The notes under the pieces were generated by a model that saw only the letters and a program-made list of their open reading frames with translations, did not search any database and was not told the origin of the DNA. From the NCBI GenBank assembly GCA_001430755.1, contig CP013062.1:630001-662000 (forward strand): DNA of 32,000 nt, given 5' to 3'. The position numbers and the translations under genes were made by a program. The DNA is from Candidatus Peribacter riflensis (GTDB taxonomy: Bacteria > Patescibacteriota > Gracilibacteria > Peribacterales > Peribacteraceae). This document shows positions 5,264-31,017 of the stretch, piece after piece (the first letter of the stretch is position 1; every line of letters begins with the position of its first letter).

Positions 5264-5340
5264 TGGTGGGTCAGGTGGGATTTGAACCCACGGCCAATTG
5301 CTTAAGAGGCAACTGCTCTACCGGACTGAGCTACTGACCC
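5264..5340 (-). tRNA. tRNA-Lys (anticodon CTT), CCA encoded
   Basis: Minus strand: GGGTCAG-TA-GCTC..GAGC-A-GTTGC-CTCTTAA-GCAAT-TGGCC-GTGGG-TTCAAAT-CCCAC-CTGACCC-A-CCA. A 10-bp hairpin (5243-5265) follows the 3' end. Confidence 0.9.
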
Positions 5341-10151: not shown

Positions 10152-10228
10152 TGGTGGGCGATAGTGGACTTGAACCACTGACCTCGACATTATCAGTGTC
10201 GCGCTCTAACCAGCTGAGCTAATCGCCC
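10152..10228 (-). tRNA. tRNA-Ile (anticodon GAT), CCA encoded
   Basis: Minus strand: GGGCGAT-TA-GCTC-AGCTGGTTA-GAGC-G-CGACA-CTGATAA-TGTCG-AGGTC-AGTGG-TTCAAGT-CCACT-ATCGCCC-A-CCA. Confidence 0.9.
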
Positions 10229-10795: not shown

Positions 10796-10902
10796 GGGTG
10801 GCTGTTCTTTTGCACGATCAAGATTCAGCCTGCTCTCTCCAAATGGTTATCGGCACAGCCGATTGATGGGGAGAGCGTGCCGCTGTCTTTGGGAGGAATC
10901 CT

Positions 10903-11154
10903 ATGTGGTGTCGACGACGACCTCGGAGAAAACACTACAAGCCTGAGGCGCTCCTCAGGGCCGGGCTTCCGTTGGAGGCCTGTCTCAGTTGTGCACAGAA
11001 GGGGCACATCGCCCTGGTCCCGATTGAAAAAATCGGGGAACACATCGCGAGAAAGCACACGGCGCGGCCGCCGAAAGTGCGCAGAAGCAGGATCGAAAGG
11101 GCTCAGAAGCCGGTGACCACGACTCCGGCTCATTCGTGGCCGTGGAACTGGTGA
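10903..11154 (+). CDS. Low-confidence small basic protein (83 aa) with C-x2-C ... H-x4-H spacing
   Basis: ATG is preceded by GGGAGGAATCCT, the clearest SD-like sequence in the window. The segment EACLSCAQKGHIALVPIEKIGEHIARKH looks coding by third-position GC. The N- and C-termini are Arg/Trp-rich like GC-rich noise. The region also contains several perfect hairpins. Confidence 0.25.
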   Translation: MWCRRRPRRKHYKPEALLRAGLPLEACLSCAQKGHIALVPIEKIGEHIARKHTARPPKVRRSRIERAQKPVTTTPAHSWPWNW

Positions 11155-11182
11155 ACCCTCACCGGAAAAAGACAGACGGTCC

Positions 11183-11212
11183 GGAGAGGCTTCGCGTACG
11201 CGAAGCCTCTCC
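11183..11212. terminator. Perfect 14-bp palindromic hairpin GGAGAGGCTTCGCG-TA-CGCGAAGCCTCTCC
   Basis: Lies 40 nt downstream of the stop of the 11252..12835 gene. On the minus strand a CTTTTTCC run follows. Confidence 0.6.
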
Positions 11213-11251
11213 AACCCAAAATGGAGAGCAAGCTGAGCACTGATCACTCCC

Positions 11252-12934: not shown

Positions 12935-13468
12935 ATGAAAAACGGCCCCAGAAACTCCCAAAAACAGGCCCGGAGGATCCTTGGCATTGACCCCGGTCTC
13001 GCCACCACCGGGCTCGGGCTCATCGAAGCGGATGAACGGCGGCAACTCACTGTGCTGGAATGGCTTACGATCTCAACGGCTGCAGGGCTTCCGCTTTCGG
13101 ATCGTCTGGAGGAAATCCGCAAGGATCTCCTGACCTACCTGCAGGAGCACCGGCCCGATCTCGCCGTCGTCGAACGACTCTTCTTCTCGACGAACGTCAA
13201 AACCGCCTTCGACGTGGCGCAGGTGCGCGGCGTGATTCTGCTCACCCTCGCCGAGCAGGGCATCGCCTGCCTGGAGCCCAATCCCCTCACCCTCAAATCC
13301 TGCATCACAGGTGACGGGCGCGCCGATAAGCGCCAGATGCAGGATATGCTCTGTCGCATACTGGATCTGAAAGAAATTCCGAAGCCCGATGATGCCGCAG
13401 ACGCTCTGGCGCTGGCGGTCTTCGGGGCGATGCAACAACAAGGGTTAGGAATAGAGGGTCGGGCGTAG
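12935..13468 (+). CDS. ruvC: Crossover junction endodeoxyribonuclease RuvC
   Basis: ILGIDPGLATTGLGLIE, AVVERLFFSTNVKTAFDVAQVRGV and PDDAADALALAV motifs. The ORF-track start at 12920 is TTG; ATG is at 12935. The last ~10 residues (QQGLGIEGRA*) are encoded by the left arm of a repeat array. Confidence 0.85.
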   Translation: MKNGPRNSQKQARRILGIDPGLATTGLGLIEADERRQLTVLEWLTISTAAGLPLSDRLEEIRKDLLTYLQEHRPDLAVVERLFFSTNVKTAFDVAQVRGVILLTLAEQGIACLEPNPLTLKSCITGDGRADKRQMQDMLCRILDLKEIPKPDDAADALALAVFGAMQQQGLGIEGRA

Positions 13469-13563
13469 GATTCACGAAAAACCTCTTCCCCTTCTCCTCT
13501 CCTCCCTACACCCTACGCCCTACGCCCTACAACCCTACGCCCCACGCCCTAATCCTACGCCCT
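13441..13563. repeat. Inverted heptamer arrays (left arm 13441-13472, right arm CCCTACG-type 13504-13563) between convergent ruvC and recF
   Basis: Right arm: ccctacaccctacgccctacgccctacaaccctacgccccacgccctaatcctacgccc. Left arm: agggttaggaatagagggtcgggcgtaggatt. Both stop codons (13466-13468 and 13535-13537) are inside the arms. Confidence 0.9.
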
Positions 13564-14659
13564 GTTCCATCACCTTCCCTCCCCCGACTTCCCACACCGT
13601 CGCGGAGGAAACCCCGGGAACACCGTGCGTCGTCGTGAGTAGCACCTGATGCCCTTTGAGCGAAGTCATGAGCCGCTCCTGGTGCACGTGATCCAGCTCT
13701 GAGAAGACATCATCGAGGAGGATGACCGGCTTTTCGCCGCGCCGGACCTCCATGTACGACACCTGCAGAAAGAGCAGAGCCAGTACGGCGGTGCGCTGCT
13801 GCCCGCGCGAGGCGAAGGTCGCGAGCTCCCGCCCCTCCACGTCGATCCGCCAGTCGTGCCGGTGGGGCCCAATCGTGGTGGTGCCGATGAGCAGGTCCCG
13901 CTCCCGAAAGTGAAGAAGATCGTGCTTGAGCTCACTCTCGATCCCCTCGAAGGTCGTCGCCCGGCCATGGCGGTCGTAGAGGAGCTCAACCTGCCGCCAC
14001 GCTTCGCCGAGCGCGTGCAGCTCCTCCTCCAGCGTGCACTGCAGCACTTTGAGCAGTTCCACGTGTCCCAGCGTGACTGCGGCCCCCTCTCGCGCGAGTG
14101 CGTCATCCCAAACCGTCAGATCCTGCTCCCGCCCCGTCCCCTCCCGGATCTTTTTGAGGAGCGCATTGCGCTGTTTGAGGACCTTCTGATACGTCTGCAG
14201 GTGCGCCGAGAACTCCGGAGCGACCTGCACGAGAAGATCATTGAGCAGATCGCGCCGGCGCGCCGGGGAGCCGCTGAAGAGCTCCAGATCCTGCGGCAGA
14301 AACGTCACCGCCGGCAGCATGCCGGTAAGGCGGCCGATCGGCATGCGCACATCATTCAAAAATCCGGCCCGCTGGCGGCGCGGGGCGCTCTGGCTCACGA
14401 TCTCGATGGTCTGTGTTTCGCGGGCATCGGACCGCACAGTCGCGCGAATGCGATAGTACATGTGCCCCCATGCGATGAGGTGGTCCTCCTCGACACCGAG
14501 AAAGGAGCGCCCGGTCGAGAGGAGGGAGAACGCTTCAAGAAGATTCGTCTTGCCTGCGGCATTCGCCCCCTGCAGAACATGCAGATCACCGTCGCCGAAC
14601 ACAAGATCCAGTGCGGTGTAGGAGCGGAACTGCTGGAGCGAGAGAGAAGTGACACGCAT
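13535..14659 (-). CDS. recF: DNA replication and repair protein RecF
   Basis: MRVTSLSLQQFRSY, Walker A GANAAGKTNLLEA, and a C-terminal LLLDDVFSELD (Walker B / signature region). Confidence 0.85.
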   Translation of the reverse strand: MRVTSLSLQQFRSYTALDLVFGDGDLHVLQGANAAGKTNLLEAFSLLSTGRSFLGVEEDHLIAWGHMYYRIRATVRSDARETQTIEIVSQSAPRRQRAGFLNDVRMPIGRLTGMLPAVTFLPQDLELFSGSPARRRDLLNDLLVQVAPEFSAHLQTYQKVLKQRNALLKKIREGTGREQDLTVWDDALAREGAAVTLGHVELLKVLQCTLEEELHALGEAWRQVELLYDRHGRATTFEGIESELKHDLLHFRERDLLIGTTTIGPHRHDWRIDVEGRELATFASRGQQRTAVLALLFLQVSYMEVRRGEKPVILLDDVFSELDHVHQERLMTSLKGHQVLLTTTHGVPGVSSATVWEVGGGKVMEQGVGLGRGA

Positions 14660-15162: not shown

Positions 15163-15245
15163 GAGAATAAAGAATGAAGAATGAGGAATGAAGGCTTCGC
15201 AGCCATTCTTCATTCATTATTCATACTTCGTAATTCTTATTTCGA
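15163..15245. repeat. Inverted heptamer arrays (GAATGAA-type 15163-15194 / TTCATTC-type 15203-15245) between rpmG and the NUDIX gene
   Basis: gagaataaagaatgaagaatgaggaatgaagg-cttcgcag-ccattcttcattcattattcatacttcgtaattcttatttcg. The rpmG stop (15237-15239) is inside the right arm. Confidence 0.85.
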
Positions 15246-15431
15246 ATGTCTCTCTTCCTTCAGCTTCGGTTTTACGTGCTTGCGGCACACGGAGCAGTAC
15301 TTCATAAGCTTGCCCGCGTGCTCCTTCCAGGCAACGCCGGTTTTATCCTGCTTGTGGAAACGGATGGTTCCTACTCTGTTGCCCGATTCCGGGCAGAGGA
15401 CGGTGAAGACGGTGCGCTTTCCTCTTGGCAT
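15237..15431 (-). CDS. rpmG: 50S ribosomal protein L33
   Basis: 64 aa. The C-terminal KYCSVCRKHVKPKLKE matches the L33 signature (KYC..C.KH..HKE). A TTGCAA-17-TAGCCT promoter (15469-15441) lies 9 nt from the ATG. Confidence 0.75.
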   Translation of the reverse strand: MPRGKRTVFTVLCPESGNRVGTIRFHKQDKTGVAWKEHAGKLMKYCSVCRKHVKPKLKEERHSK

Positions 15432-15487
15432 AACGGCGGTAGGCTACTGATGGTGTTGAGCGATTGCAAGGAAAATAATGATCGAAC

Positions 15488-15563
15488 GAGGGCTAGGGTT
15501 AAGGTTAGGAACAGGAAAAATACGACAGACCATGAACAATTCCTAACCCTATCCCTAATCCTC
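15488..15563. repeat. Inverted short-unit arrays (TAGGGTT/TAAGGTT left, CCTAACC/CCCTAAT right) downstream of trxB
   Basis: gagggctagggttaaggttaggaac ... aattcctaaccctatccctaatcctc. Confidence 0.85.
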
Positions 15564-15575
15564 TTCAATACCCCT

Positions 15576-16490
15576 TTATCTCTGCAAATAACTAAACACC
15601 CCGGAAACAGCCACCGCCCCCTCCCCCGCCGCCGTCACGAATTGGGCGAAGTGATTGCTGGCGCCCGAGACATCCCCCGCGGCAAAGGCGCCGGGAACAG
15701 AGGTCTGCTGTGCAGCATCCACCTTGAGGTATCCGCGTTCATCCAAGGCACAGCCGAGGGATTGCGCCATCTCGACGGCCGGGGTCGCGCCGATCTCGAC
15801 GAACACGCCGTCCACCGCCAGGCGATCAGACCCTTCGAAGGGCTGGTCGAGCACGAGTGCCGTCACCTTCGCATCGCCGGTGATCTCCCTCACTTGTCGT
15901 TCGAGGACGAACGTCACATTGGTCTTCTCTTTGAGCTTCTCGACCCAGTACGGCTCGGCCTTGAACTCTTTGCGCCGGTGGATCACGTAGAGCTTCTTCG
16001 TCACCTGAGCCACGATAGCTGCTCCTTCCACGGCCGCATCCCCTCCCCCCACCACGGCGACGGTCTTGCCCTTGAAGAAGAATGCATCGCACGTGGCGCA
16101 GTACGAAACCCCCTTGCCGGCGAACTCCTTCTCGCCCTTCACATTGAGATGACGCTTGTTGGACCCCGTCGCAAAAATGACAGTCTTGGCCTCCTCCGCC
16201 TTGCCATCGGTGAACGTCAGCCGAAACCCGTCCTTCGTCTTTTCGACCTTCGCGACGCGCGTCTGCCTCAGTGTCACTTCCGAAAAACTCACCGCGTGCT
16301 TCTTCATCCGCTCCATCAGCTCCGGCCCCGTCACTTCGATGTCGCCCGGCCAGTTGCCCACTTCGGCAGCCGTATTGCCCATGCCGCCTTCCTCCTCGCC
16401 GACAAGGAGCGTCGTGAGTTTGTAGCGCGCCGCGTAGATCGCGGCGGTGTACCCGGCGGCCCCGAGGCCGATAATGGCAGTGTCGAACAT
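15576..16490 (-). CDS. trxB: Thioredoxin-disulfide reductase
   Basis: GLGAAGYTAAIYAARY (FAD), redox CATCDAFFF, VVGGGDAAVEGA (NADPH) and GDVSG motifs. A TTGGGG-17-TATCAT promoter lies 9 nt from the ATG. Confidence 0.9.
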   Translation of the reverse strand: MFDTAIIGLGAAGYTAAIYAARYKLTTLLVGEEEGGMGNTAAEVGNWPGDIEVTGPELMERMKKHAVSFSEVTLRQTRVAKVEKTKDGFRLTFTDGKAEEAKTVIFATGSNKRHLNVKGEKEFAGKGVSYCATCDAFFFKGKTVAVVGGGDAAVEGAAIVAQVTKKLYVIHRRKEFKAEPYWVEKLKEKTNVTFVLERQVREITGDAKVTALVLDQPFEGSDRLAVDGVFVEIGATPAVEMAQSLGCALDERGYLKVDAAQQTSVPGAFAAGDVSGASNHFAQFVTAAGEGAVAVSGVFSYLQR

Positions 16491-16538
16491 AGTGCTGCCA
16501 TGATACTCGATTTGTCTGCTCTCCCCAAACCGGCACGC

Positions 16539-16570
16539 AAAAAATGCCTGCCGTCGTCATGACGGCAGGC
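16539..16570 (-). terminator. Rho-independent terminator (GCCTGCCGTC-loop-GACGGCAGGC + T6 on the minus strand) after the RTX gene
   Basis: 10-bp perfect stem at 16546-16570, followed on the minus strand by ATTTTTT (16545-16539). Confidence 0.6.
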
Positions 16571-17651: not shown

Positions 17652-17928
17652 CCTCACGAATTGTTCCTGACACGCTCAACAACACATCCTCGTTCTTTCC
17701 CATGAAACCCTGGTACGGCCTATTCATCCTCCTTTCAAAGAGAAATGCCGTCGATTGAAATGAGCGAGTTCCCATGAACCCCCTTGAAACCTCATTGCAA
17801 TCCAGAGCTCACAGCAGATTATTTTACAATTATTTATATATTCGTCAATTATTCATCTATTCGAATACACAGCCCTCACTCAACCCATCCCACCGCCCGC
17901 TGGCAACGTACGGCGGTATACTGGCTGT

Positions 17929-18588
17929 ATGGCCCGTCTGCCCTTCCACTCACGTACGGAAGCCGGCAAGGAACTCGCCGGGCTGCTGCGCTCGTACGCC
18001 GGCAAGAAGGACACGCTGATCCTCGCCCTCGTCCGCGGCGGCGTGGTGGTAGGAAGGGCCCTGGCCGATGCCCTCAGGCTCCCGATATTCCCGTACGTGG
18101 TTCGCAAGCTCGGACATCCTGCCCACCGCGAGTACGCCCTGGGGGCGATTGCGGAGGGAGGCGGAACCTCTCTCGATGAGGAAGCCATGCGCATGAGCGG
18201 CATCACATGGGAAGACATGGAACCGATCATCGAGGAGGAGACAGCGGAATTGAAGCGCCGCAAAGAGTCGTACGCCGTACACACCCGACCTGCATTGAAA
18301 GGCAAAGTGATCCTTCTGGTGGATGACGGTGCGGCCACGGGCGCAACTCTCTTCGCCGCCATCGAGGATCTGCGCACGGCCAAGGTGAAGAAGATTGTCG
18401 TGGCGCTCCCCGTGAGCCCGCCGGATACCGCCGTGAAGCTCACAGAGAAGGTGGATGATGTCGTTGTGCTGTCGGCCCCCGATCCCTTCGAAGCCGTGGG
18501 ACGGTGGTACCGGGCATTCCCCCAAGTGGAGGATGAGGAGGTCATGCAACTGCTCGCTTCCGGGCCGGGGACGAAAGCAGTAAGATAA
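17929..18588 (+). CDS. Type I phosphoribosyltransferase-domain protein (COG1926-like)
   Basis: 219 aa. PRPP-binding loop VILLVDDGAATGATL, preceded by LALVRGGVVVG. TATACT (17917-17922) lies 6 nt upstream of the ATG. Confidence 0.75.
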   Translation: MARLPFHSRTEAGKELAGLLRSYAGKKDTLILALVRGGVVVGRALADALRLPIFPYVVRKLGHPAHREYALGAIAEGGGTSLDEEAMRMSGITWEDMEPIIEEETAELKRRKESYAVHTRPALKGKVILLVDDGAATGATLFAAIEDLRTAKVKKIVVALPVSPPDTAVKLTEKVDDVVVLSAPDPFEAVGRWYRAFPQVEDEEVMQLLASGPGTKAVR

Positions 18589-18594
18589 GGATGT

Positions 18595-18680
18595 GCCGGA
18601 GTGGCGGAATTGGTAGACGCGCACGACTCAAAATCGTGTGCCGCAAGGCGTTGAGGGTTCGATTCCCTCCTCCGGCACCA
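18595..18680 (+). tRNA. tRNA-Leu (anticodon CAA), long variable arm, CCA encoded
   Basis: GCCGGAG-TG-GCGG..-CACGA-CTCAAAA-TCGTG-TGCCGCAAGGCGT-GAGGG-TTCGATT-CCCTC-CTCCGGC-A-CCA. Confidence 0.9.
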
Positions 18681-18725
18681 TTCGTCGGCCCTTTGGGCCT
18701 CCTCATGGCAAGCCATGGTATGCCA
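18681..18725 (+). repeat. Variant copy of the dispersed tRNA-associated motif (TTCG / GGCCC-TTT-GGGCC / ..GGCAAGCC)
   Basis: ttcgtcGGCCCtttGGGCCtcctcatGGCAAGCCatggtatgcc, immediately after the tRNA-Leu CCA. Confidence 0.55.
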
Positions 18726-18727
18726 TC

Positions 18728-18949
18728 TCACTGCGACTGCCCATCCTCCTCCATCAGCCGCAGGACCGCGTACACCTTGGCCGCCGTTTCATGAGGGCCC
18801 TGCCCCAGACGGCGGCATACTTCCTGCACGATATCGTACCTGCGCATACAGCCGACACCGGAACACGGTATCTGCCCGGCGTGAATATCCGCATCGACAG
18901 CGCGGATAAGATCGGCGATCTGCTGCTGCTCCGGAGGGAGAGAAATCAT
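18728..18949 (-). CDS. Hypothetical 73-aa protein
   Basis: ATG-initiated ORF (MISLPPEQQQIADLIRAVDADIHAGQIPCSGVGCMRRYDIVQEVCRRLG...). No family recognised; the composition is plausible for a real protein. Confidence 0.35.
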   Translation of the reverse strand: MISLPPEQQQIADLIRAVDADIHAGQIPCSGVGCMRRYDIVQEVCRRLGQGPHETAAKVYAVLRLMEEDGQSQ

Positions 18950-19050: not shown

Positions 19051-20520
19051 ATGAAGCAGTACTCCTCCTTCATTTTCGATTCCTATGCCTTCGATTCGGA
19101 GGCGGGAACCATCGAGCTCCGCTACGCGCTGGATGATGAGACATTCTTCACCGAGACCCTGCTCCTGCCCAAAGACTATCAGCTGCAAGCTCCAAGTGCG
19201 CAGCAGGATGCGGCACTCGCGGCGCTGCACCTGATCGGCGGCATCAGTTACTACAAAACCTGTTTGCCGAAGAAGATTACAATAAATGATTCCGCTACTT
19301 CTCTCCCCGCCGGGGAGAGACCGAGTGAGGGGGACATACGAAGAAAACCTTTGACCCAAGAACAAGCTGACTTCTGGAACACGGTGTACACGAAAGGCCT
19401 CGGAGAATTCTTCTTCAAGAACCAGATCGACTTCCGAAATCTCATCAATTTCCCGTCTTCACCCCTCACCCCAGCCCTCTCCCCACGGGAGAGGGTGGCG
19501 CAAAGCGCCGGGAGAGGGGCTCGTCTCTTAGTCCCCATCGGCGGCGGCAAAGATTCGACCGTCACCATTGAGCTCCTCAAGAGAGCGGGATACGACATCA
19601 CGCTCTTCCGTATCGGCAGACACCCGCTCATCGAGGAAACCGCGAAAACCGCAGGGCTCCCCCTGCTCACCGTGGAACGCCACCTGGCTCCGGAACTTTT
19701 CAAACTGAATGCGGAGGGCGCCTTGAACGGCCATGTGCCCATCACCGCATATCTCTCGTTCCTGAGCGTTGTGATCGCCGAGCTCTACGGATTCCACGCC
19801 GTCGTGATGAGCAACGAACGGAGCGCCAGCGAGGGCAATGTGGACTACCTGGGCAGCCAGATCAACCATCAGTGGAGCAAGAGTCTGGAATGTGAACGCC
19901 TGCTCCGGCAGTACATGGAAGGGATTGGCAGCGGCGTGCAGTACTTCAGCCTGCTGCGGCCGTTGAGCGAACTCTCCATTCTGAAAACGTTCTCCACCCT
20001 CCCGCAATATTTCTCCTGCATAACGAGCTGCAATACCAACTGGAAAATCGCCTCTTCACGATTGCCGAGTTCCCGAGTTCCCGAGTTCCCTCCCCCTCCT
20101 GTGCAGGGAAATAGGGAAATAGGGAAAGCGGGAGAACGAAATCGCTGGTGTGGCACATGCCCCAAGTGCGCGTTCGCCTTCACACTCTTCGCCGCGTTCC
20201 TGCCGAAGAAGACACTCCTGGAGATCTTCGGGAAGAATCTGTTCGATGCAGAGGCTCTGCAGCCATTCTTCCGTCAACTCCTCGGCCTCGAGGGCTTCAA
20301 GCCGTTCGAGTGCGTGGGCACGCCGGAGGAAACGTCCGCCGCTTTCCTGCTCGCACAGGAGCGGGGCGATCTCACGGATACGAAAGCCATGCAGATCTTT
20401 CTGCAGGAGGTGAAGCCAAAGATCAAGGATGCGAAGACACTGATCGCCTCGGTGCTGGAACCGGGCGACGAGCACTGCATCCCCGAACAATTCCACTCAG
20501 CACTTCCCTCAATCCCTTAG
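19051..20520 (+). CDS. PP-loop ATPase-like protein, candidate UDP-MurNAc-L-Ala-L-Glu epimerase (MurL-like), carrying three in-frame repeat modules
   Basis: 489 aa. LLVPIGGGKDSTV (PP-loop-like SGGxDS), a conserved-looking WCGTCPKCAF block, and a position immediately upstream of murD. The MurL assignment comes from remembered family features and synteny, not a search. Confidence 0.55.
   Translation: MKQYSSFIFDSYAFDSEAGTIELRYALDDETFFTETLLLPKDYQLQAPSAQQDAALAALHLIGGISYYKTCLPKKITINDSATSLPAGERPSEGDIRRKPLTQEQADFWNTVYTKGLGEFFFKNQIDFRNLINFPSSPLTPALSPRERVAQSAGRGARLLVPIGGGKDSTVTIELLKRAGYDITLFRIGRHPLIEETAKTAGLPLLTVERHLAPELFKLNAEGALNGHVPITAYLSFLSVVIAELYGFHAVVMSNERSASEGNVDYLGSQINHQWSKSLECERLLRQYMEGIGSGVQYFSLLRPLSELSILKTFSTLPQYFSCITSCNTNWKIASSRLPSSRVPEFPPPPVQGNREIGKAGERNRWCGTCPKCAFAFTLFAAFLPKKTLLEIFGKNLFDAEALQPFFRQLLGLEGFKPFECVGTPEETSAAFLLAQERGDLTDTKAMQIFLQEVKPKIKDAKTLIASVLEPGDEHCIPEQFHSALPSIP
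19300..19334 (+). repeat. GC hairpin module TCTCTCCCC-GCC-GGGGAGAGA + CCGAGTGAGGGGGA, in frame in the MurL-like CDS
   Basis: Perfect 9-bp stem at 19300-19320. Encodes ..SLPAGERPSEGD.. Confidence 0.85.
19459..19520 (+). repeat. GC hairpin module (CACCCCTCACCCC, CCCTCTCCC-CAC-GGGAGAGGG, GGCGC-AAA-GCGCC, GGGAGAGGGG), in frame in the MurL-like CDS
   Basis: Perfect 9-bp stem at 19475-19495 and 5-bp stem at 19497-19509. Encodes SSPLTPALSPRERVAQSAGRGA, directly before the PP-loop. Confidence 0.85.
20065..20137 (+). repeat. Octamer arrays in inverted arrangement (CCGAGTTC x3; GGGAAATA x2, GGGAAAGC, GGGAGAAC), in frame in the MurL-like CDS
   Basis: Read directly. Encodes SSRVPEFPPPPVQGNREIGKAGERN, just before WCGTCPKC. 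Confidence 0.9.
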
Positions 20521-20568
20521 TCCTTCGTCCTTCGTCCTCTGTCCTCAGTGCTCTATCCTCCGCCCCTC
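20505..20568 (+). repeat. One-armed pyrimidine-rich heptamer array (TTAGTCC, TTCGTCC x2, TCTGTCC ...) filling the murL-like/murD junction up to ATG 20569
   Basis: cttccctcaatcccttagtccttcgtccttcgtcctctgtcctcagtgctctatcctccgcccctc-ATG. The upstream stop TAG (20518-20520) is part of a unit. Confidence 0.9.
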
Positions 20569-21909
20569 ATGCACATCCGCGACCTCAGCGGCAAATCGAT
20601 CTGCATTCTCGGCTACGGCCGTGAGGGACAAGCCATGCTCAAGGCGCTGGAGGAGCACGCGCCCGGCTGCGAGATCACGGTCGCGGACCAGGATGCGGCA
20701 ATCACGCTCCCGAAGGGATCTCGCCACTGGTTGCAGGTGGGAGATGGCTGGCTCAAAAACCTCGACAAGTTCGACGTATTGATCAAATCGCCCGGCATTC
20801 CGCCACATCCGGTGCTCGAAGCCTACCGCTCTGCACTCATCTCACCCACCCAGATCTTCTTCGATTCCATTCGAGACTCGGGAGCCATGGTCATTGGAGT
20901 GACCGGTTCAAAAGGAAAAAGCACGACGGCCAGTCTTCTGTACCACATCCTCCAAACAAGCCAACCAGCCCACCAGCCAACCAGCCGCATTCTCCTCGTC
21001 GGCAACATCGGCGAGCCCGCCATCGCGCACCTGAAGGACGCAGCCCCCGGGACGACCTGTGGTGAGCGCAGTCGAACCATCTTCGTGATGGAGATGAGCA
21101 GCTACCAGCTCATGGATCTCACAACAAGCCCGCACCTCGCCGTCGTGACCTCGTTCTTCCCCGAGCACCTGGACTATCATGGATCGGTGGAAGCCTACGG
21201 AGAAGCGAAGAAACACATCGCGCGCTTTCAGACCAAAGAGGACACGGTGTTCTTCATGGCTGATTCGGCAGGGACGCTCGAGATCGCCAAAGAGAGCCGC
21301 GGAAAGCGCATCCCCTTCTCTGCAGCGGACACTCCGGTGGCGATCGGCGAGACACAGCTCATCGGCACGCACAACCTCGGCAACATTGCAGCCGCCTTCC
21401 TCGTCAGTCAGGAGCTTGGAGTTGAAAAAGAGATCGCCGTTGCAGCGATCCGCTCGTTCACTCCCCTGCCCCATCGCCTGCAGAGCCTGGGCATCAAGCA
21501 CGACATCGAATGGGTGGATGATTCTATTTCCACAACGCCGCAGTCAGCCATCGCCGCGCTCGATGCGCTGGGAGACCGCGTGGCGACGATCATCCTCGGC
21601 GGCTTAGACCGCGGCTACGACTTCAGCCCCCTCGCAGAGCGCCTCACACAATCGACAGTACAAACGGTGATTCTTCTTCCCGAGAGCGGAAAGCGAATTG
21701 GAGAAGCCCTGAAGAAAGCCACGGCCCACGCTCAGATCTGCGAGGCGAAGAACATGGAAGAAGCCGTCACTCTCGCAAAGCAGCACACCCGAAGTCCGAT
21801 TCCCGATTCCCGATTCCCAATCGTATTGCTTTCCCCCGCCTCCCCCAGTTACGGGCACTTCAAGAACTTCGAAGACCGGGGGGAGCAATTCGCTCGTGCT
21901 GCGCAGTAA
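20569..21909 (+). CDS. murD: UDP-N-acetylmuramoyl-L-alanine--glutamate ligase (MurD; possibly MurD2 type)
   Basis: ILGYGREGQA, GVTGSKGKSTTASLL (P-loop), MEMSSYQL, GTHNLGNIAAA, DDSISTTPQSAIAAL and LLSPASPSYGHFKNFEDRGEQF motifs. The ORF-track start at 20548 is GTG inside the array; ATG is at 20569. Confidence 0.85.
   Translation: MHIRDLSGKSICILGYGREGQAMLKALEEHAPGCEITVADQDAAITLPKGSRHWLQVGDGWLKNLDKFDVLIKSPGIPPHPVLEAYRSALISPTQIFFDSIRDSGAMVIGVTGSKGKSTTASLLYHILQTSQPAHQPTSRILLVGNIGEPAIAHLKDAAPGTTCGERSRTIFVMEMSSYQLMDLTTSPHLAVVTSFFPEHLDYHGSVEAYGEAKKHIARFQTKEDTVFFMADSAGTLEIAKESRGKRIPFSAADTPVAIGETQLIGTHNLGNIAAAFLVSQELGVEKEIAVAAIRSFTPLPHRLQSLGIKHDIEWVDDSISTTPQSAIAALDALGDRVATIILGGLDRGYDFSPLAERLTQSTVQTVILLPESGKRIGEALKKATAHAQICEAKNMEEAVTLAKQHTRSPIPDSRFPIVLLSPASPSYGHFKNFEDRGEQFARAAQ
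20957..20988 (+). repeat. Octamer array CCAACCAG / CCCACCAG / CCAACCAG, in frame in murD
   Basis: Three 8-nt units (24 nt) encoding QPAHQPTS, just after the P-loop helix. Confidence 0.85.
21058..21081 (+). repeat. In-frame fragment related to the 30949-31017 hairpin element (TGGTGAGC-nnn-GTCGAACCAT)
   Basis: tgtGGTGAGCgcaGTCGAACCATc compared with catGGTGAGCtctGTCGAACCATg at 30956-30978. Encodes CGERSRTI in murD. Confidence 0.6.
21791..21823 (+). repeat. Heptamer array GAAGTCC + GATTCCC x3, in frame in murD
   Basis: Read directly. Encodes RSPIPDSRFPI, just before the conserved LLSPA..S block. Confidence 0.9.
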
Positions 21910-24759: not shown

Positions 24760-24835
24760 GTCACGGTAGCTCAGTTGGTAGAGCACAGGACTCATAAGCC
24801 TGGGGTCGCCGGTTCAATCCCGGCCCGTGACACCA
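24760..24835 (+). tRNA. tRNA with CAT anticodon (elongator Met or Ile2), CCA encoded
   Basis: GTCACGG-TA-GCTC-AGTTGGT-AGAGC-A-CAGGA-CTCATAA-GCCTG-GGGTC-GCCGG-TTCAATC-CCGGC-CCGTGAC-A-CCA. The paired G1:C72 argues against an initiator. Confidence 0.85.
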
Positions 24836-24963: not shown

Positions 24964-25695
24964 ATGCAGCCCGTACTGCTTTGTCTGCACGGCTGGGGAG
25001 GCTCCAAGGAATCCTTCGATGAGCTCAAGGCCGCGCTCGACGGCGAAGACCTGTTGATCCTCACGCCGGATCTTCCCGGCTTTGGGCTGGAACCGGAACC
25101 GGATCGTCCGTGGAGCGTGGATGACTATGCCAATTGGGTCGAAGTGTATCTGCAGAAAACCCTACGCCCTACGCCCTACGCCCAAAGTCCTCTTCTCCTC
25201 CTCGGTCATTCGCACGGCGGACGCATCGCCATCAAACTCGCAGCCAGACAAACGAACAGCTACAAGCTAGATCACCTCTACCTCTGCGCCGCCGCAGGCA
25301 TCCGTCACCGGTCACTCAAGCGGCTCCTTGGCAGGATGCTGGCAGGCATCGGACGCGCACTCTTCGCCATCCCCGGTCTCTCAAAGCTGGAGCCGTTTGC
25401 GAAGAGAATGCTCTACAAGCTCCTGCGCGAGCACGACTACGAGCGGGCATCGCCCATCATGCGGCAAACCCTCGCAAGGGTCACGGCGGAGGATCTGACT
25501 TCCCTCCTTCCGAAGATCGCAGTGCCCACCGATCTCTTCTGGGGCGAGGACGATACGTACACGCCCATCGCTCACGGCCGCCTGATGCATGAGGGCATCC
25601 GCGGGAGCGTGCTGCATACATTTGAAGGGACCCGTCACCGCGTGCACCGCGATCGCGCCCTCGAAATCGCCTCTGTCATCCGCGATCATCTCTAA
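24964..25695 (+). CDS. Alpha/beta hydrolase
   Basis: LLCLHGWGGS and the nucleophile elbow LLGHSHGG, plus a C-terminal H in GTRHRVH. TACTAT (24950-24955) lies 8 nt upstream of the ATG. Confidence 0.8.
   Translation: MQPVLLCLHGWGGSKESFDELKAALDGEDLLILTPDLPGFGLEPEPDRPWSVDDYANWVEVYLQKTLRPTPYAQSPLLLLGHSHGGRIAIKLAARQTNSYKLDHLYLCAAAGIRHRSLKRLLGRMLAGIGRALFAIPGLSKLEPFAKRMLYKLLREHDYERASPIMRQTLARVTAEDLTSLLPKIAVPTDLFWGEDDTYTPIAHGRLMHEGIRGSVLHTFEGTRHRVHRDRALEIASVIRDHL
25160..25190 (+). repeat. Heptamer array CCTACGC x3 (+CCAAAGT), in frame in the hydrolase CDS
   Basis: Same unit as the ruvC/recF junction array. Encodes TLRPTPYAQS, just before the nucleophile-elbow strand. Confidence 0.9.
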
Positions 25696-25769
25696 CCTTA
25701 ACCTTATATCTCACCCTTCGTCCTTAGTCCTTCGTCCTTCGTCCTTCGTCCTTAGTCCTAATCCCTAAA
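25693..25769 (+). repeat. One-armed array (TAACCT x2 ... TTCGTCC/TTAGTCC x6, TAATCCC, TAAA) filling the hydrolase/murF junction up to ATG 25770
   Basis: Read directly. It begins with the hydrolase stop TAA, and stop codons occur in all three frames (25725, 25753 and 25766). Confidence 0.95.
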
Positions 25770-28593: not shown

Positions 28594-29346
28594 TTAATGC
28601 ACGTAACTCGCCGCATTGATGTCGATCGTTGCTCCCGTGGCATGATCTGCCAGACCACTGAGCAAAAAGGTGACCATCGGGCTAATATCCGTGGGCTCTG
28701 TAAGCCTGTTCAAGGCGACGCCTTCCAGCAGAGCCGCTTCGCCGTACTGCTCCAGCGCCTCTTTCGCCATATCGGTTTTCACCCAGCCGGGAGCGATGAT
28801 GAAACACTTGATATCGTCCTTTCCAAAATCTCGTGCGATGGATTTGCTCAGAGAGACAACGCCTCCCTTCGATGCCGCATAGCAAAGATAGTCCTCCGTA
28901 TCACCGCGAAACGCCGCGCGCGATGCGATGTTGACGATCCGCCCTCCCCCGCACTTGCGGAAATGGACGACGGCCTCCCGACAGAGGATCGCGACGGCAC
29001 GCAGATTCACCGCGAAAACTTCATCGCATTTCTCAGTCCACTGCTCATCCTGAAGCGGCGCCAGAGGACAAATACCCGCATTGTTCACCAAGGCATCTAT
29101 ATGCCCGAACTGCTGAACGACTTCTGCAAAAAGATGCTGACAGGCAACCGGATCCCGCAAATCCGCCTGAAAGGCCTTCGAACCGTTCCCTGCCTCCTGC
29201 ACCGTGCGATGCGCCGCGTCCTCGCTTCCCGAATAGTGAACGGCTACACGCGCCCCTGCCGCCCCGACCTGCCGCGCGATTGCCGCTCCTATGCCGCGCG
29301 ATGCCCCGGTCACGAGCACATTCTTTCCCTGAAGATCAATGGTCAT
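28594..29346 (-). CDS. SDR-family oxidoreductase (FabG-like)
   Basis: TGASRGIGAAIA (TGxxxGIG), NNAG, and the YAASKGG catalytic Y-x3-K. TGgTAGACT lies 7 nt upstream of ATG 29346. Confidence 0.85.
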   Translation of the reverse strand: MTIDLQGKNVLVTGASRGIGAAIARQVGAAGARVAVHYSGSEDAAHRTVQEAGNGSKAFQADLRDPVACQHLFAEVVQQFGHIDALVNNAGICPLAPLQDEQWTEKCDEVFAVNLRAVAILCREAVVHFRKCGGGRIVNIASRAAFRGDTEDYLCYAASKGGVVSLSKSIARDFGKDDIKCFIIAPGWVKTDMAKEALEQYGEAALLEGVALNRLTEPTDISPMVTFLLSGLADHATGATIDINAASYVH

Positions 29347-29386
29347 GACTCGCAGTCTACCAGCAAGTGCTCACCTGTCGCTTCCA

Positions 29387-29414
29387 TCTTCTGTCTTACG
29401 TCTTACGTCTTCCG
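29387..29414 (+). repeat. Heptamer array TCTTCTG, TCTTACG x2, TCTTCCG in the divergent SDR/femAB promoter region
   Basis: Read directly. It ends 4 nt before TAGAAT (29419-29424). Confidence 0.85.
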
Positions 29415-29431
29415 AAGCTAGAATACCGGCG

Positions 29432-30607
29432 ATGACTATTCAGGAAGCCACAAATCCGCAGGAGTGGGATGCCTTTCTCGCCACGCAAACCTTCCGCCCG
29501 TTCCTGCAGAGCTGGACGATGGGCGAGGTGTATCGCGACACCAAGCAGGAACCCATCCGGCTGGAGGTGCGCGAAGGGCAAGAGATCGTAGCGATTTGTC
29601 TGGCAATTCTCGTTCCCGCGAGGCGCGGCCGCCACCTGATGATCCCCTACGGACCGGTCATGCGAAGTACAGAGTACGGAGTACAAAGTACGGAAGTATT
29701 CAATCTTCTTCTTGAAAAGCTGAAGCGGGTCGCCAAAGAACACCGCTGCTCTTTCATCCGCATGAGTCCCTTCTGGCCTTCCGATTTCCCGAGTTCCCGA
29801 GTTCCCTCCGCCATCCCTTCTCCCCTCCACCTGCTCGCCGAACATCTCTGGTACCTGCCGCTGCAGACGCCGGATCCCTGGCAATTTAATTCCCCTCTCA
29901 CCGCGGGAGAGGGGTTAGGGGTGAGGGGCACTCACCGTACGGAGGAAGAACTGCTCGCAGGGCTGCGCAAGACGACCCGGAACCTGGTGCGACGCGCGGA
30001 GCGTGATGGCGTGACCGTAGAAGCTTCAAAAGATCCGAACCGCGAGATCGAACACTTCATCGCACTGCACGAAGAGACCCGCCAGCGCCACGGATTCACC
30101 CCCTACACACACGCGTTCTTTCGCTCGCAGGTACGCCGCTTTTCCGCACGCAACGAATGCACGCTCTACCTCGCGCGCTTTCAGGGCGAAGTGGCTGCGG
30201 CCTCCATCCACATGCACGCCTTCGGCGAATGTAGCTACCACCACGGCGCCAGTACGCACCGCCTCTCCAAAGTGCCGACGAGCTACCTGCTGCAGTGGAC
30301 GGCCATCCGCGATGCGCTCAAACGCGGTGATCACGTGTACAACTTCTGGGGGATTGCCCCCGTGATCGGGAATCGGGAATCGGGAATCGGACCCAGGACA
30401 TCGGAACAAGAACAGGGATCTTCCCGAAGTCCGAATCCCGAATCCCGAATTCCTTCATCCCATCCCTTCGCCGGCGTCACGCTCTTCAAGACCGGGTTCG
30501 GCGGCGGGCTGCTCCCCCTGACGCACTGCATGGATTTTCCCCTGTCTGCGCGGTACCATCTCACCCGTGCCTTCGAACTCCTCCGCAAATGGCGCAGAGG
30601 ATTCTGA
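29432..30607 (+). CDS. FemAB-family peptidoglycan interpeptide aminoacyltransferase-like protein with four in-frame repeat modules
   Basis: WDAFLATQTFRPFLQSWTMGE, LMIPYGPV, RKTTRNLVRRAERDGV, ALHEETRQRHGF and LFKTGFGG resemble the FemAB/FemX family (PF02388-like). ATG 29432 lies 7 nt after TAGAAT. Confidence 0.7.
   Translation: MTIQEATNPQEWDAFLATQTFRPFLQSWTMGEVYRDTKQEPIRLEVREGQEIVAICLAILVPARRGRHLMIPYGPVMRSTEYGVQSTEVFNLLLEKLKRVAKEHRCSFIRMSPFWPSDFPSSRVPSAIPSPLHLLAEHLWYLPLQTPDPWQFNSPLTAGEGLGVRGTHRTEEELLAGLRKTTRNLVRRAERDGVTVEASKDPNREIEHFIALHEETRQRHGFTPYTHAFFRSQVRRFSARNECTLYLARFQGEVAAASIHMHAFGECSYHHGASTHRLSKVPTSYLLQWTAIRDALKRGDHVYNFWGIAPVIGNRESGIGPRTSEQEQGSSRSPNPESRIPSSHPFAGVTLFKTGFGGGLLPLTHCMDFPLSARYHLTRAFELLRKWRRGF
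29664..29698 (+). repeat. Heptamer array NNAGTAC x4-5, in frame in the FemAB-like CDS
   Basis: gaagtac agagtac ggagtac aaagtac ggaagta, encoding RSTEYGVQSTEV. Confidence 0.85.
29779..29830 (+). repeat. Octamer array CCGATTTC, CCGAGTTC x2 plus a C-rich tail, in frame in the FemAB-like CDS
   Basis: Same CCGAGTTC unit as 20065-20088. Encodes SDFPSSRVPSAIPSPL. Confidence 0.85.
29892..29928 (+). repeat. GC hairpin module CCCCTCTC-loop-GAGAGGGG + TTAGGGGTGAGGGG, in frame in the FemAB-like CDS
   Basis: 8-bp stem at 29892-29914, same family as 19300-19334 and 19459-19520. Encodes SPLTAGEGLGVRG. Confidence 0.85.
30364..30470 (+). repeat. Inverted heptamer arrays (ATCGGGA x3 left; CCGAAGT, CCGAATC x2, CCGAATT right), ~105 nt, in frame in the FemAB-like CDS
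   Basis: Encodes GNRESGIGPRTSEQEQGSSRSPNPESRIPSSHP between two conserved-looking blocks (NFWGIAP ... FAGVTLFKTGFGG). Confidence 0.9.
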
Positions 30608-30637
30608 GCACGATCACCTCTTCATTCCCTCGCCCCG

Positions 30638-30937
30638 ATGCCCGTTCCCCTCAAATCCCCTCCACCGGACAACGTGACGCAGATCCTCGAGATCCTCAAG
30701 CGCATGGACCGCCGTGACAGGCTTCGCACAATCGGGGGCTTCATTCGGGGCATCTTCAGCATCATTCCGATCGTGATCGTCATCTTCCTCACGTGGTACA
30801 CCATCAAGTACGGGGATCAGCTCCTCGAGAAAATCACCACCATGGCTGCAGAGCAGGCGGGCCGGGTGGCGAAGCAGAACACCATCACCAACTTCATGGA
30901 CGAGTTCAATGCCCTCAACCAGAAGCTGAAGAAGTAG
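30638..30937 (+). CDS. Small single-TM membrane protein (99 aa), unknown function
   Basis: ATG ORF with a central TM (FIRGIFSIIPIVIVIFLTWYTI) and charged flanks. Confidence 0.5.
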   Translation: MPVPLKSPPPDNVTQILEILKRMDRRDRLRTIGGFIRGIFSIIPIVIVIFLTWYTIKYGDQLLEKITTMAAEQAGRVAKQNTITNFMDEFNALNQKLKK

Positions 30938-30948
30938 AAAGCAATAGC

Positions 30949-31017
30949 ATGTGTCATGGTGAGCTCTGTCGAACCATGGCACATCACGTCATCCTTCGAC
31001 AGTGCTCAGGATGACAG
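30949..31017. repeat. Double-hairpin GC element between convergent genes (TGTGTCATGG..CCATGGCACA; GTCATCCT..AGGATGAC)
   Basis: Stem 1: 30950-30959 with 30974-30983 (9 of 10 bp). Stem 2: 30988-30995 with 31008-31015 (8 of 8 bp). The sequence class (..GGTGAGC..GTCGAACC.. / ..TTCGACAG.GCTCAGGATGAC..) recalls dispersed elements often mistranslated as short ORFs. Confidence 0.75.

Follow-up and report, generated by a model that had tools for sequence, protein, structure and literature searches.

Short-period repeat arrays and a dispersed hairpin element in four variable loops of a FemAB-family gene of Candidatus Peribacter riflensis

Heptanucleotide repeats and in-frame repeats are both known phenomena. 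Arrays of GGGAATC in Xanthomonas and of GGGGAYT in Nostoc occur genome-wide on both strands, typically with about four units (Rehm et al. 2015, PMC4692102), and for the TAACTGA direct repeats of marine Beggiatoaceae, cyanobacteria and Bacteroidetes the coding potential of the unit, which has stops in some frames, dictates the places where it is tolerated (MacGregor 2015, PMC4679880). In Borg extrachromosomal elements, the unit of every tandem repeat inside an open reading frame (ORF) measures a multiple of three (Schoelmerich et al. 2023, PMC9879509). Here we analyse a stretch of 32,000 nt of Candidatus Peribacter riflensis (contig CP013062.1, positions 630,001–662,000, forward strand; this whole stretch is called the window, and coordinates below are window positions), in which a FemAB-family gene (29432–30607, + strand) carries four repeat modules, S1 to S4, in an open reading frame. 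The modules are of two kinds: S1, S2 and S4 are non-triplet simple-sequence arrays, and S3 is a copy of a dispersed element of about 35 nt made of a hairpin and G-tracts. Comparison with related genomes indicates that S1–S4 are four loops colonised by short-period repeats that pervade the genomes of Peribacteria, which would make the phenomenon lineage-wide rather than damage to one gene. Of such features, the genome paper of Ca. P. riflensis (2016, PMC4736985) names only a single long direct repeat and short ones at the origin, besides indels in twelve proteins, and we found no description of these repeats in the literature on Peribacteria or Peregrinibacteria.

The arrays resemble those of Xanthomonas and Nostoc and the cyanobacterial short tandemly repeated repetitive (STRR) heptamers in that 7-nt arrays are dispersed, and the left arm of S4 is literally (GGGAATC)n. 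About 29% of the Peribacteria units are likewise of the G3N4 type. S4, however, does not fit the four-G-tract requirement, and the density, extrapolated to about 0.1–0.3 arrays per kb, compares with about 0.04 per kb in Xanthomonas. The TAACTGA repeats are likewise abundant, lineage-restricted heptamers of unknown origin, but they are single-unit and lie mostly in intergenic DNA just upstream of start codons. Whereas the repeats of Xanthomonas, Nostoc, Beggiatoaceae and the STRR type are dominated by a single unit or a small number of units and lie chiefly between genes, the 94 arrays that we found in Peribacteria have 64 distinct units, and many of them lie in frame in housekeeping genes or form inverted pairs. 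Borg repeats share with them perfect, locus-specific units, fast turnover, independent origins, a location partly in intact ORFs and disordered segments of the S/P/Q/N type. However, the Peribacteria units measure 7 or 8 nt, which is not divisible by three, so that one peptide period takes three units and all three unit frames are translated; moreover, they occur in a small-genome bacterium of the candidate phyla radiation (CPR), in loops that correspond between the orthologues of a conserved enzyme. The phase-variable hmw tracts of Haemophilus influenzae (PMC8262952) are also short non-triplet repeats in or near envelope genes; the Peribacteria tracts, in contrast, show no length polymorphism or off-frame allele, are short and occur in core metabolic genes as well. 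What is new is the finding of dense and diverse non-triplet arrays, some of them inverted pairs, which occupy the same loops, in frame, in the orthologues of a conserved enzyme and undergo concerted evolution.

A transferase gene and its four modules

An uninterrupted reading frame for 391 amino acids starts with the ATG at 29432 and is closed by the stop codon at 30605–30607. An initial annotation of the window had placed the gene in the FemAB family (FemX/FemA-like, aminoacyl-tRNA-dependent peptidoglycan branch transferases) and had described four modules that keep its 391 codons open; both statements hold, with conserved motifs on both sides of the modules. The protein matches the Pfam family FemAB (PF02388) with 98.8 bits against a cut-off of 24 (E = 3.9e-28) as well as Acetyltransf_6 (4.6e-18). 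Its match to the NCBIfam FemX equivalog NF047883 (UDP-MurNAc-pentapeptide-lysine N6-alanyltransferase) reaches 41.7 bits against a cut-off of 500, and a score this far under the equivalog cut-offs does not justify the assignment of a specific substrate. An AlphaFold2 model computed with 120 homologues has a mean pLDDT of 88.7 and a pTM of 0.88. Its best fold matches are S. aureus FemA (1lrz), FmhB/FemX (6snr) and Weissella viridescens FemX (1ne9), all with a probability of 1.00 and query-normalised TM scores of 0.66–0.72, as expected of the two-domain FemX/FemA fold. A pLDDT below 50 is confined to residues 160–163 in S3 and 314–336 in S4, and residues 81–90 in S1 have a pLDDT of 73; the structure prediction that had been proposed as a check thus returned a confident fold.

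Over the 120 homologues, 68 alignment columns are invariant, including F352 and K353, which indicates that the core of the enzyme is under normal purifying selection. F352-K353 aligns with the F-K of the FemA motif GVVKFKKGY, and the alignment to FemX itself ends before the motif; in FemX the lysine of this motif is the catalytic one. S4 ends nine residues ahead of the F-K motif, and, going by the domain boundaries of FemX, both S3 and S4 presumably lie near the two inter-domain crossovers. With FemX of W. viridescens and FemA/FmhB of S. aureus the Peribacter protein has in common the two-domain, acetyltransferase (GNAT)-like fold and the FemA-aligned F-K motif, but it is only 14–16% identical to them and has no FemA-type coiled-coil arm, and its loops S1–S4 are longer than in the solved FemX/FemA structures. 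Judged by sequence and model, the gene most probably encodes a working FemX/FemA-type transferase whose specificity is unassigned.

All four modules were recovered at the places where they had been read, and Tandem Repeats Finder (TRF) called the arrays of S1, S2 and S4. S1 (29664–29698, + strand) is a heptamer array, (NNAGTAC)x~4.6, with the units GAAGTAC, AGAGTAC, GGAGTAC, AAAGTAC and GGAAGTA (TRF 29666–29694, period 7, 3.7 copies); it encodes RSTEYGVQSTEV in a loop and the N-terminus of a helix past the conserved YGP motif (residues 76–92). S2 (29781–29806, + strand) is an octamer array, CCGATTTC CCGAGTTC CCGAGTTC CC (TRF period 8, 3.2 copies), that encodes part of SDFPSSRVP in the loop past the conserved SPFWP motif (residues 116–130). 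A twofold repeat had been claimed here for 29779–29830; the octamer array accounts for the first half of that segment, whereas the remainder to 29830 is C/T-rich and unrepeated. S3 (29892–29928, + strand) reads CCCCTCTC-ACCGCGG-GAGAGGGG followed by TTAGGGGTGAGGGG, that is, the layout CCCCTCTC-N7-GAGAGGGG-TTA-GGGGTGAGGGG, and encodes SPLTAGEGLGVRG in the loop past the conserved PDPW motif (residues 151–170). The description of S3 as a hairpin plus an adjoining segment was correct, but it is not a heptamer array of local origin.

S4 is the longest module. Its left arm (30365–30390, + strand) is (ATCGGGA)x3.7, equivalent to (GGGAATC)n, with 100% matches in TRF, and encodes IGNRESGIG. A spacer of 31 nt (30391–30421, + strand), which is the apical part of the predicted hairpin, separates it from the right arm (30422–30453, + strand) with the units TCCCGAA, GTCCGAA, TCCCGAA, TCCCGAA and TTCC (TRF 30422–30450, period 7, 4.1 copies). 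As previously read, the arms are approximate reverse complements: 30368–30392 and 30429–30453 are 84% complementary over 25 nt, giving an imperfect hairpin. The long addition between the conserved blocks FWGIAP and HPF had been put at about 35 residues and measures 33, which is 28 more than in the shortest orthologues (5 residues) and 18–19 more than in the common 14–15-residue form. Peptides of the predicted protein that span the loops are STEYGVQSTEVFNLLLEK, ESGIGPR, TSEQEQGSSR, SPNPESR and IPSSHPFAGVTLFK.

S1, S2 and S4 consist of head-to-tail units beyond chance, and this holds for the whole region. Tandem arrays were called by TRF and by a scan for perfect runs (at least 2.5 copies). The window holds ten perfect arrays of period 7, whereas the expectation based on 100 dinucleotide shuffles is 0.02 (maximum 1), and four of period 8, with none expected. 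In 80 loci from species-representative Peribacteria genomes (524 kb in all) we found 75 period-7 arrays against 0.2 expected, distributed over 36 of the loci, and six period-8 arrays. Perfect arrays of periods 9–15 are absent from the window and essentially absent from the 80 loci. Perfect 7-nt arrays are therefore about 400-fold over expectation, in genes and between genes. The window and the 80 loci together contain 94 arrays, and GGG or CCC occurs in the units of 27 of them (29%), whereas the share among random heptamers of the genomes is 17%. Certain units turn up more than once at loci that are unrelated, within a genome as well as in different ones: CCCTACG in six arrays of five genomes, AGCTCAC-type units in five arrays, and GGGAATC together with a near-complement.

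The same loops with different units

The modules of the window gene coincide exactly with four sites at which orthologues vary in length, and all its differences from the orthologues are whole codons. Past YGP, the S1 loop has 18–31 residues (23 in 16 species and 30 in 20); past SPFWP, S2 has a spread of 13–29; past PDPW, S3 has a spread of 17–55; and past FWGIAP, S4 has 5–39, with 5 residues in 16 species and 14 in 17 (14–15 in 21). From the 80 loci, 65 complete coding sequences (CDS) were extracted, and 43 of their 44 period-7/8 arrays lie in S1–S4, which make up about 24% of the gene, so that the confinement is strong, even though these counts are phylogenetically non-independent. Automatic assignment placed 37 arrays in S1–S4, six further arrays at CDS nt 431–503 belong to S3 where the anchor pattern failed, and one is N-terminal. 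Within the FemAB gene, arrays thus occur only in loops that are length-variable among species and that are surface-exposed or poorly ordered in the model.

These results change the view of the modules as inserts of this one gene. They are in frame, but they are not private to it and sit in four ancestral length-variable loops that hold other arrays elsewhere. Insert boundaries out of codon register relative to orthologues would have pointed to a pseudogene, and sequence homologous to S4 in distant FemAB proteins would have spoken against an insertion. Since the differences are whole codons and S4 has no counterpart in short orthologues (five residues in 16 of 62 Peribacteria orthologues) or in FemA (about 11 residues), neither is the case.

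At constant positions, the repeat units themselves differ between species. The two common S1 lengths of 23 and 30 residues are 21 nt apart, which equals three heptamers. In the window gene and at least ten other species the S1 array starts at CDS nt 232 and has about 4.5 units, and these are AGTACAG in the window and AGCTCAC, AGCTACC, AGCAGAA, AGGAATC, AGGGGTC, ACAATCA, CCAATCA and others elsewhere. The S2 array of the window gene is shared with locus L002, and other species have CCCTACG, AGCTACA, CCACTTT and further arrays at this site. The right arms of S4 are positionally homologous, each homogenised to its own unit: TCCCGAA/GTCCGAA in the window, GCCCGAA then GTCCGAA in L083, GTCCCAA in L001 and GTCCTAA/TCCCTAA in L082. 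When mapped on a phylogeny computed with 328 conserved columns, arrays that differ in their units appear all over the orthologue tree at each of the four sites, with the highest density in the clade of the window gene.

Closer comparisons point in the same direction. L002 and L083 have (AGCTCAC) arrays of equal length in S1, with a lone AGCTCAA variant that is the first unit in one and the third in the other. The S1 arrays (AGCTACC)x4.6 of L005 and L082 (CDS nt 232–263) are identical at 32 of 32 positions, whereas their flanking codons are 76% identical; this would fit ongoing homogenisation, recent exchange or selection at the nucleotide level. In the codon alignment with the closest orthologues the core has a nucleotide identity of 74–79% and a third-position identity of 50–61%. 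Against this background, nt 211–330 of the window gene (S1 and the following helix) are 91–98% identical to L081 (core about 79%), nt 331–385 (S2) are about 92% identical to L002, and nt 445–490 (S3) are closest to L082. In window coordinates the mosaic covers 29642–29870 and 29876–29921 and runs from L081 to L002 and then to L082/L083. This pattern suggests that recombination swaps loop cassettes among Peribacter lineages.

S3 differs from the other modules in being dispersed. A flexible pattern search yielded the family consensus CCCTCTC, a loop of 4–10 nt, GAGAGGG, about 3 nt and GGGTGAGGG. A second copy in the window lies at 19463–19495 (− strand) within the ORF 19051–20520, and copies are present in the loci of 13 other Peribacteria species, six of them at the same FemAB site, including that of orthologues which are only 56–57% identical; the others are found within further genes or are intergenic. 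The S3 hairpin has a predicted stability of −20.4 kcal/mol as RNA and a z score of −3.0 as DNA, and 29905–29928 contains four G-tracts that match the G-quadruplex motif G3+N1-7 x4. No obvious target-site duplication was seen by eye beside S3. By sequence, S3 thus seems to act like a miniature dispersed palindromic element of the repetitive extragenic palindromic (REP), Rickettsia palindromic element (RPE) or miniature inverted-repeat transposable element (MITE) kind, with dispersed copies that share a consensus and a hairpin; S1, S2 and S4, which belong to the diverse unit arrays, do not. RPEs were reportedly described by Ogata et al. in 2000 as in-frame palindromic selfish DNA in protein genes. 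They are 100–150 bp long, have a family consensus and are tolerated in frame at surface-exposed positions of conserved proteins. As hairpin-forming palindromic DNA in frame they come closest to S3 and, with regard to its hairpin, to S4. S3 is shorter, however, at about 35 nt, and no family consensus unites S1, S2 and S4, which are arrays of units.

Explanations for the arrays

We read these patterns as homogenisation under a constraint of length and frame, combined with recombination of loop segments among related lineages. The explanation that we favour, and consider reasonably probable, is a lineage-wide process that generates repeats in a 7-nt register, together with one dispersed hairpin element, whose products are filtered to permissive loops, homogenised and reshuffled by recombination. 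Replication slippage or gene conversion within arrays, both in the 7-nt register, would create the arrays and drive their turnover, inverted pairs such as S4 may arise or stay complementary through fold-back (quasi-palindrome) template switching, and S3 would have come as a copy of the small dispersed element. Purifying selection would purge variants that are out of frame or break the structure, leaving the frame-keeping arrays in permissive loops, and homologous recombination among related lineages may reshuffle the loop cassettes. The S/P/Q/N-rich peptides encoded by the arrays most likely do not serve as functional modules but are tolerated as flexible loops.

Several points weigh against this explanation. 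Slippage and template switching are deduced from patterns, and neither an intermediate nor a polymorphic allele was seen; all 44 assembly blocks have the same protein, and the database contains no sequence with an identity from 77 up to 100%. Because the gain or loss of one heptamer by slippage breaks the frame, the turnover of coding arrays at constant length is left without a mechanistic explanation. The recurrence of CCCTACG, GGGAATC and AGCTCAC at unrelated loci is not predicted by purely local de novo slippage. Arrays that are identical between species with 75% identical flanks could reflect nucleotide-level selection, and S4-type hairpins with unrelated units (L016) and the co-variation of the S4 arms between the window gene and L083 hint at a constraint at the level of structure.

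The last two points also count for an alternative that we regard as unlikely: the arrays would be selected nucleic-acid structures, S4 as an mRNA or DNA hairpin and S3 as a hairpin/G-quadruplex switch, with the peptide as a by-product. Such structures could influence pausing during translation, the stability or processing of the mRNA, or else replication and transcription. S4 is predicted to form a long imperfect hairpin of −44.4 kcal/mol (z = −2.5 to −3.1), and only 2 of 200 shuffles were as stable. Hairpins are predicted for S4 of L083 (z = −4.0) and of the distant L016 with its unrelated units (z = −3.95), and between the window gene and L083 both arms have changed together (CGGGA/TCCCG and CGGAC/GTCCG). 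The S3 stem is kept in the window, L082, L083, L010 and other copies while its loop varies, and inverted arrays also occur in intergenic DNA of the window. On the other hand, the homologous S4 arrays of L001 (z = −0.3) and L082 (0 kcal/mol) and those of L009 and L015 are not predicted to form the hairpin, and the majority of orthologues have no S4 array at all. The S4 hairpin predicted for the window gene thus appears to be recurrent rather than conserved in every species with homologous arrays. The co-variation of the arms fits selection for pairing, but quasi-palindrome correction by template switching predicts it on its own. S1 and S2 have little or no structure (z = +0.2 for S2), and among the 64 units in 94 arrays GGG or CCC is found in the 29% given above.

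Specific candidates for such a structure did not hold. The G-quadruplex was rejected as a general explanation given the small share of GGG/CCC units and the non-canonical S4, whose arms have three G3 tracts and do not match G3+N1-7 x4, the four-tract arrangement of the G-quadruplex heptamers of Rehm et al. (2015). An intrinsic terminator or promoter in S4 was rejected as no T-tract follows the hairpin and the consensus scans were empty. On inspection, GGGAATC is not a slippery X_XXY_YYZ heptamer, which speaks against a −1 frameshift signal. Rfam 15 returned only four tRNAs at threshold in the window, and 29300–30700 gave only sub-threshold chance matches to miRNA precursors, so no family is matched by the modules.

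A little less likely again is that the encoded low-complexity loops are adaptive, serving as flexible S/P/Q/N-rich linkers that tune the binding of substrate, tRNA or partners. Four species with a long S4 have a similar peptide of the SPxPxS type (SRSPNPESRIP, ARSPKPEVRSP, SSPSPKSQVPSP and LSPHPQSLIP), but homologous arrays automatically give similar peptides. The length of the S1 array stays constant while its units change, and S, P, Q and N are enriched in the array peptides. Precedent comes from Borg repeats, where disordered regions are under selection (PMC9879509). Against this stand the majority of orthologues, which do without the additions, sequences that are unconserved across the class, the low pLDDT of the loops and the presence of the same kinds of array in intergenic DNA. 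Moreover, in mean hydropathy the array peptides are indistinguishable from peptides of random stop-free heptamers (1270 of 5000 resamples). This result fits tolerance rather than design, and protein-level selection on the units was rejected for lack of a signal in this resampling.

We consider it improbable that the modules are contingency tracts that switch a cell-wall branching enzyme off and on. Since neither 7 nor 8 is a multiple of three, gain or loss of one unit would switch the frame; non-triplet units lie inside the ORF and in its upstream region, four tracts stand in a single envelope-related gene, and heptanucleotide tracts drive the phase variation of HMW adhesins in H. influenzae (PMC8262952). 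However, the exact 391-residue protein is present in the 44 blocks of public assemblies, complete genomes included, and the independent contig L084 is identical over 7,569 nt; frame-switching polymorphism in repeat number was not seen in these assemblies, which report consensus sequences only. A single intact ORF is found in 79 of the 80 orthologue loci, and L067, which failed the motif test, has a full-length tblastn match. None of the 80 loci is visibly frameshifted, with L067 unresolved by the motif test. The tracts are short (3–4.6 units) and the same arrays occur in other housekeeping genes such as those of the Mur ligase and the hydrolase. No strain-level copy-number variant was found in the 90% cluster of the protein beyond P0124 (384 residues), which was rejected as a length variant because it stems from a chimeric contig end whose first 637 nt are unrelated while the rest is 100% identical. 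In its source, L087 (JGI contig Ga0103682_10000063), the junction lies just past the S1 block, probably because the assembly joined unrelated sequences at a conserved motif. When metagenome contigs were scanned for the exact left flank of S4, no match was obtained.

An origin of all four modules by in-frame insertion of mobile miniature elements (MITE/REP/RPE-like) is slightly less probable still, although we accept it for S3. S3 is truly dispersed, with 15 copies in 14 of the fetched Peribacteria loci besides the two in the window, and some array units do occur at unrelated loci; the RPEs mentioned above are a precedent. Yet S1, S2 and S4 have no common consensus, as the 64 units in 94 arrays illustrate, and no terminal repeats or target duplications were noticed, for which no systematic test was made. 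Besides, the arrays at a given site change by homogenisation of their units, not by presence or absence of a fixed element. Finally, four low-complexity stretches within 1.2 kb might suggest a decaying pseudogene or an assembly artefact, but the open frame, the invariant columns, the confident fold, conserved synteny, the identical sequence of curated complete genomes and independent assemblies, and the recurrence of the phenomenon in dozens of independently assembled genomes refute both.

Surroundings of the gene and significance

The FemAB gene belongs to a cell-wall cluster with the order Mur ligase, DegT aminotransferase, short-chain dehydrogenase/reductase (SDR), FemAB, a protein of about 100 residues, SH3/polysaccharide deacetylase and arginyl-tRNA synthetase (ArgRS). 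This order is kept in the three closest orthologue loci, in two of which the SDR gene is uncalled. The complete Peribacteria genome CP082927.1 has the same order with a 136-residue gene where the SDR gene stands; because the synteny of its locus is matched there, the protein P0107 is an orthologue, and its interpretation as a same-genome paralogue was rejected. Among 5.8 billion sequences the next closest protein is 77% identical. One NCBI record uses an upstream ATG at 29339, which gives a protein of 422 residues; in the alignment orthologues begin at MTIQEA, corresponding to 29432, which favours the latter start. The 31 extra codons (29339–29431) fall into the divergent intergenic region shared with the SDR gene, where TRF and the perfect-run scan call a (GTCTTAC)x2.7 array (29393–29411, + strand) in the 85-nt gap between the SDR gene and the FemAB start. 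Downstream, an inverted repeat (30952–31016) with arms of 27 nt, 81% complementary, and a loop of 11 nt lies between a convergent small-protein gene (30638–30937) and the SH3/deacetylase gene (from 31025); it is a possible bidirectional terminator that the consensus terminator scan does not flag.

Beyond FemAB, in-frame arrays in the window are found in the Mur ligase gene (20548–21909), with (AACCAGCC)x4 at 20955–20986 and (CCGATTC)x3.3 at 21796–21818, the latter being the unit of the S4 left arm on the opposite strand; in an alpha/beta hydrolase gene (24964–25695), with (CCCTACG)x3.4 at 25160–25183; and in two unannotated ORFs, one of which (489 residues, 19051–20520) has (CCGAGTTC)x3.2 followed by (AGGGAAAT)x2.9 at 20065–20127. 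Arrays also occur in many intergenic regions. Long heptamer arrays between genes lie at 25715–25759 ((CCTTCGT)x6.4), 20515–20560 (CCTTCGT/GTCCTCT) and 2093–2182 ((AAGAATA), (GTCCTAA) and (CCTAATC)), so the CCTTCGT unit stands at two separate intergenic sites. The likeness of S4 to other inverted arrays of the window, already pointed out in the initial annotation, is confirmed by pairs at 13437–13566, 15164–15237, 15488–15563 and 2812–2924. These short-period pairs are mostly intergenic; one of them (GGGTTAA-type / CCCTAAT-type) lies within the ORF 15246–16562, and (CCCTACG)x8.6 at 13504–13563 stands opposite a degenerate G-rich arm. A perfect 30-nt palindrome, GGAGAGGCTTCGCGTACGCGAAGCCTCTCC, is located at 11183–11212 within or beside the ORF 10825–11247 (− strand). 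Four tRNA genes are present (5267–5340 and 10155–10228 on the − strand, 18595–18677 and 24760–24832 on the + strand), and the mechanically called ORF 17880–18731 (− strand), which overlaps with one of these, is unlikely to be a gene.

For practical purposes, such tracts inflate the apparent divergence of proteins, create spurious 'hypothetical' low-complexity regions, mislead the annotation of start codons and domains and can yield chimeric assemblies. Repeats of 7 or 8 nt are usually viewed as frame-breaking switches or as intergenic curiosities, and here they provide a conserved cell-wall enzyme, probably an essential one, with a steady supply of new loop sequence throughout an entire class of uncultivated, ultra-small bacteria. 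Loops of the same position and length with different units are a natural experiment on concerted evolution under reading-frame constraint and on the tolerance of loops for arbitrary sequence. More speculatively, and in our estimate improbably, a lineage-specific process that writes and rewrites DNA in a 7-nt register could supply essential proteins with most of their new loop sequence, in place of ordinary point mutation, in which case the co-varying inverted arrays would be functional hairpins or the footprint of the mechanism. Such a dedicated process might use templated or fold-back repair synthesis, or slippage imposed by a protein with a 7-nt footprint. Its existence would add a new mutational process to those of bacteria.

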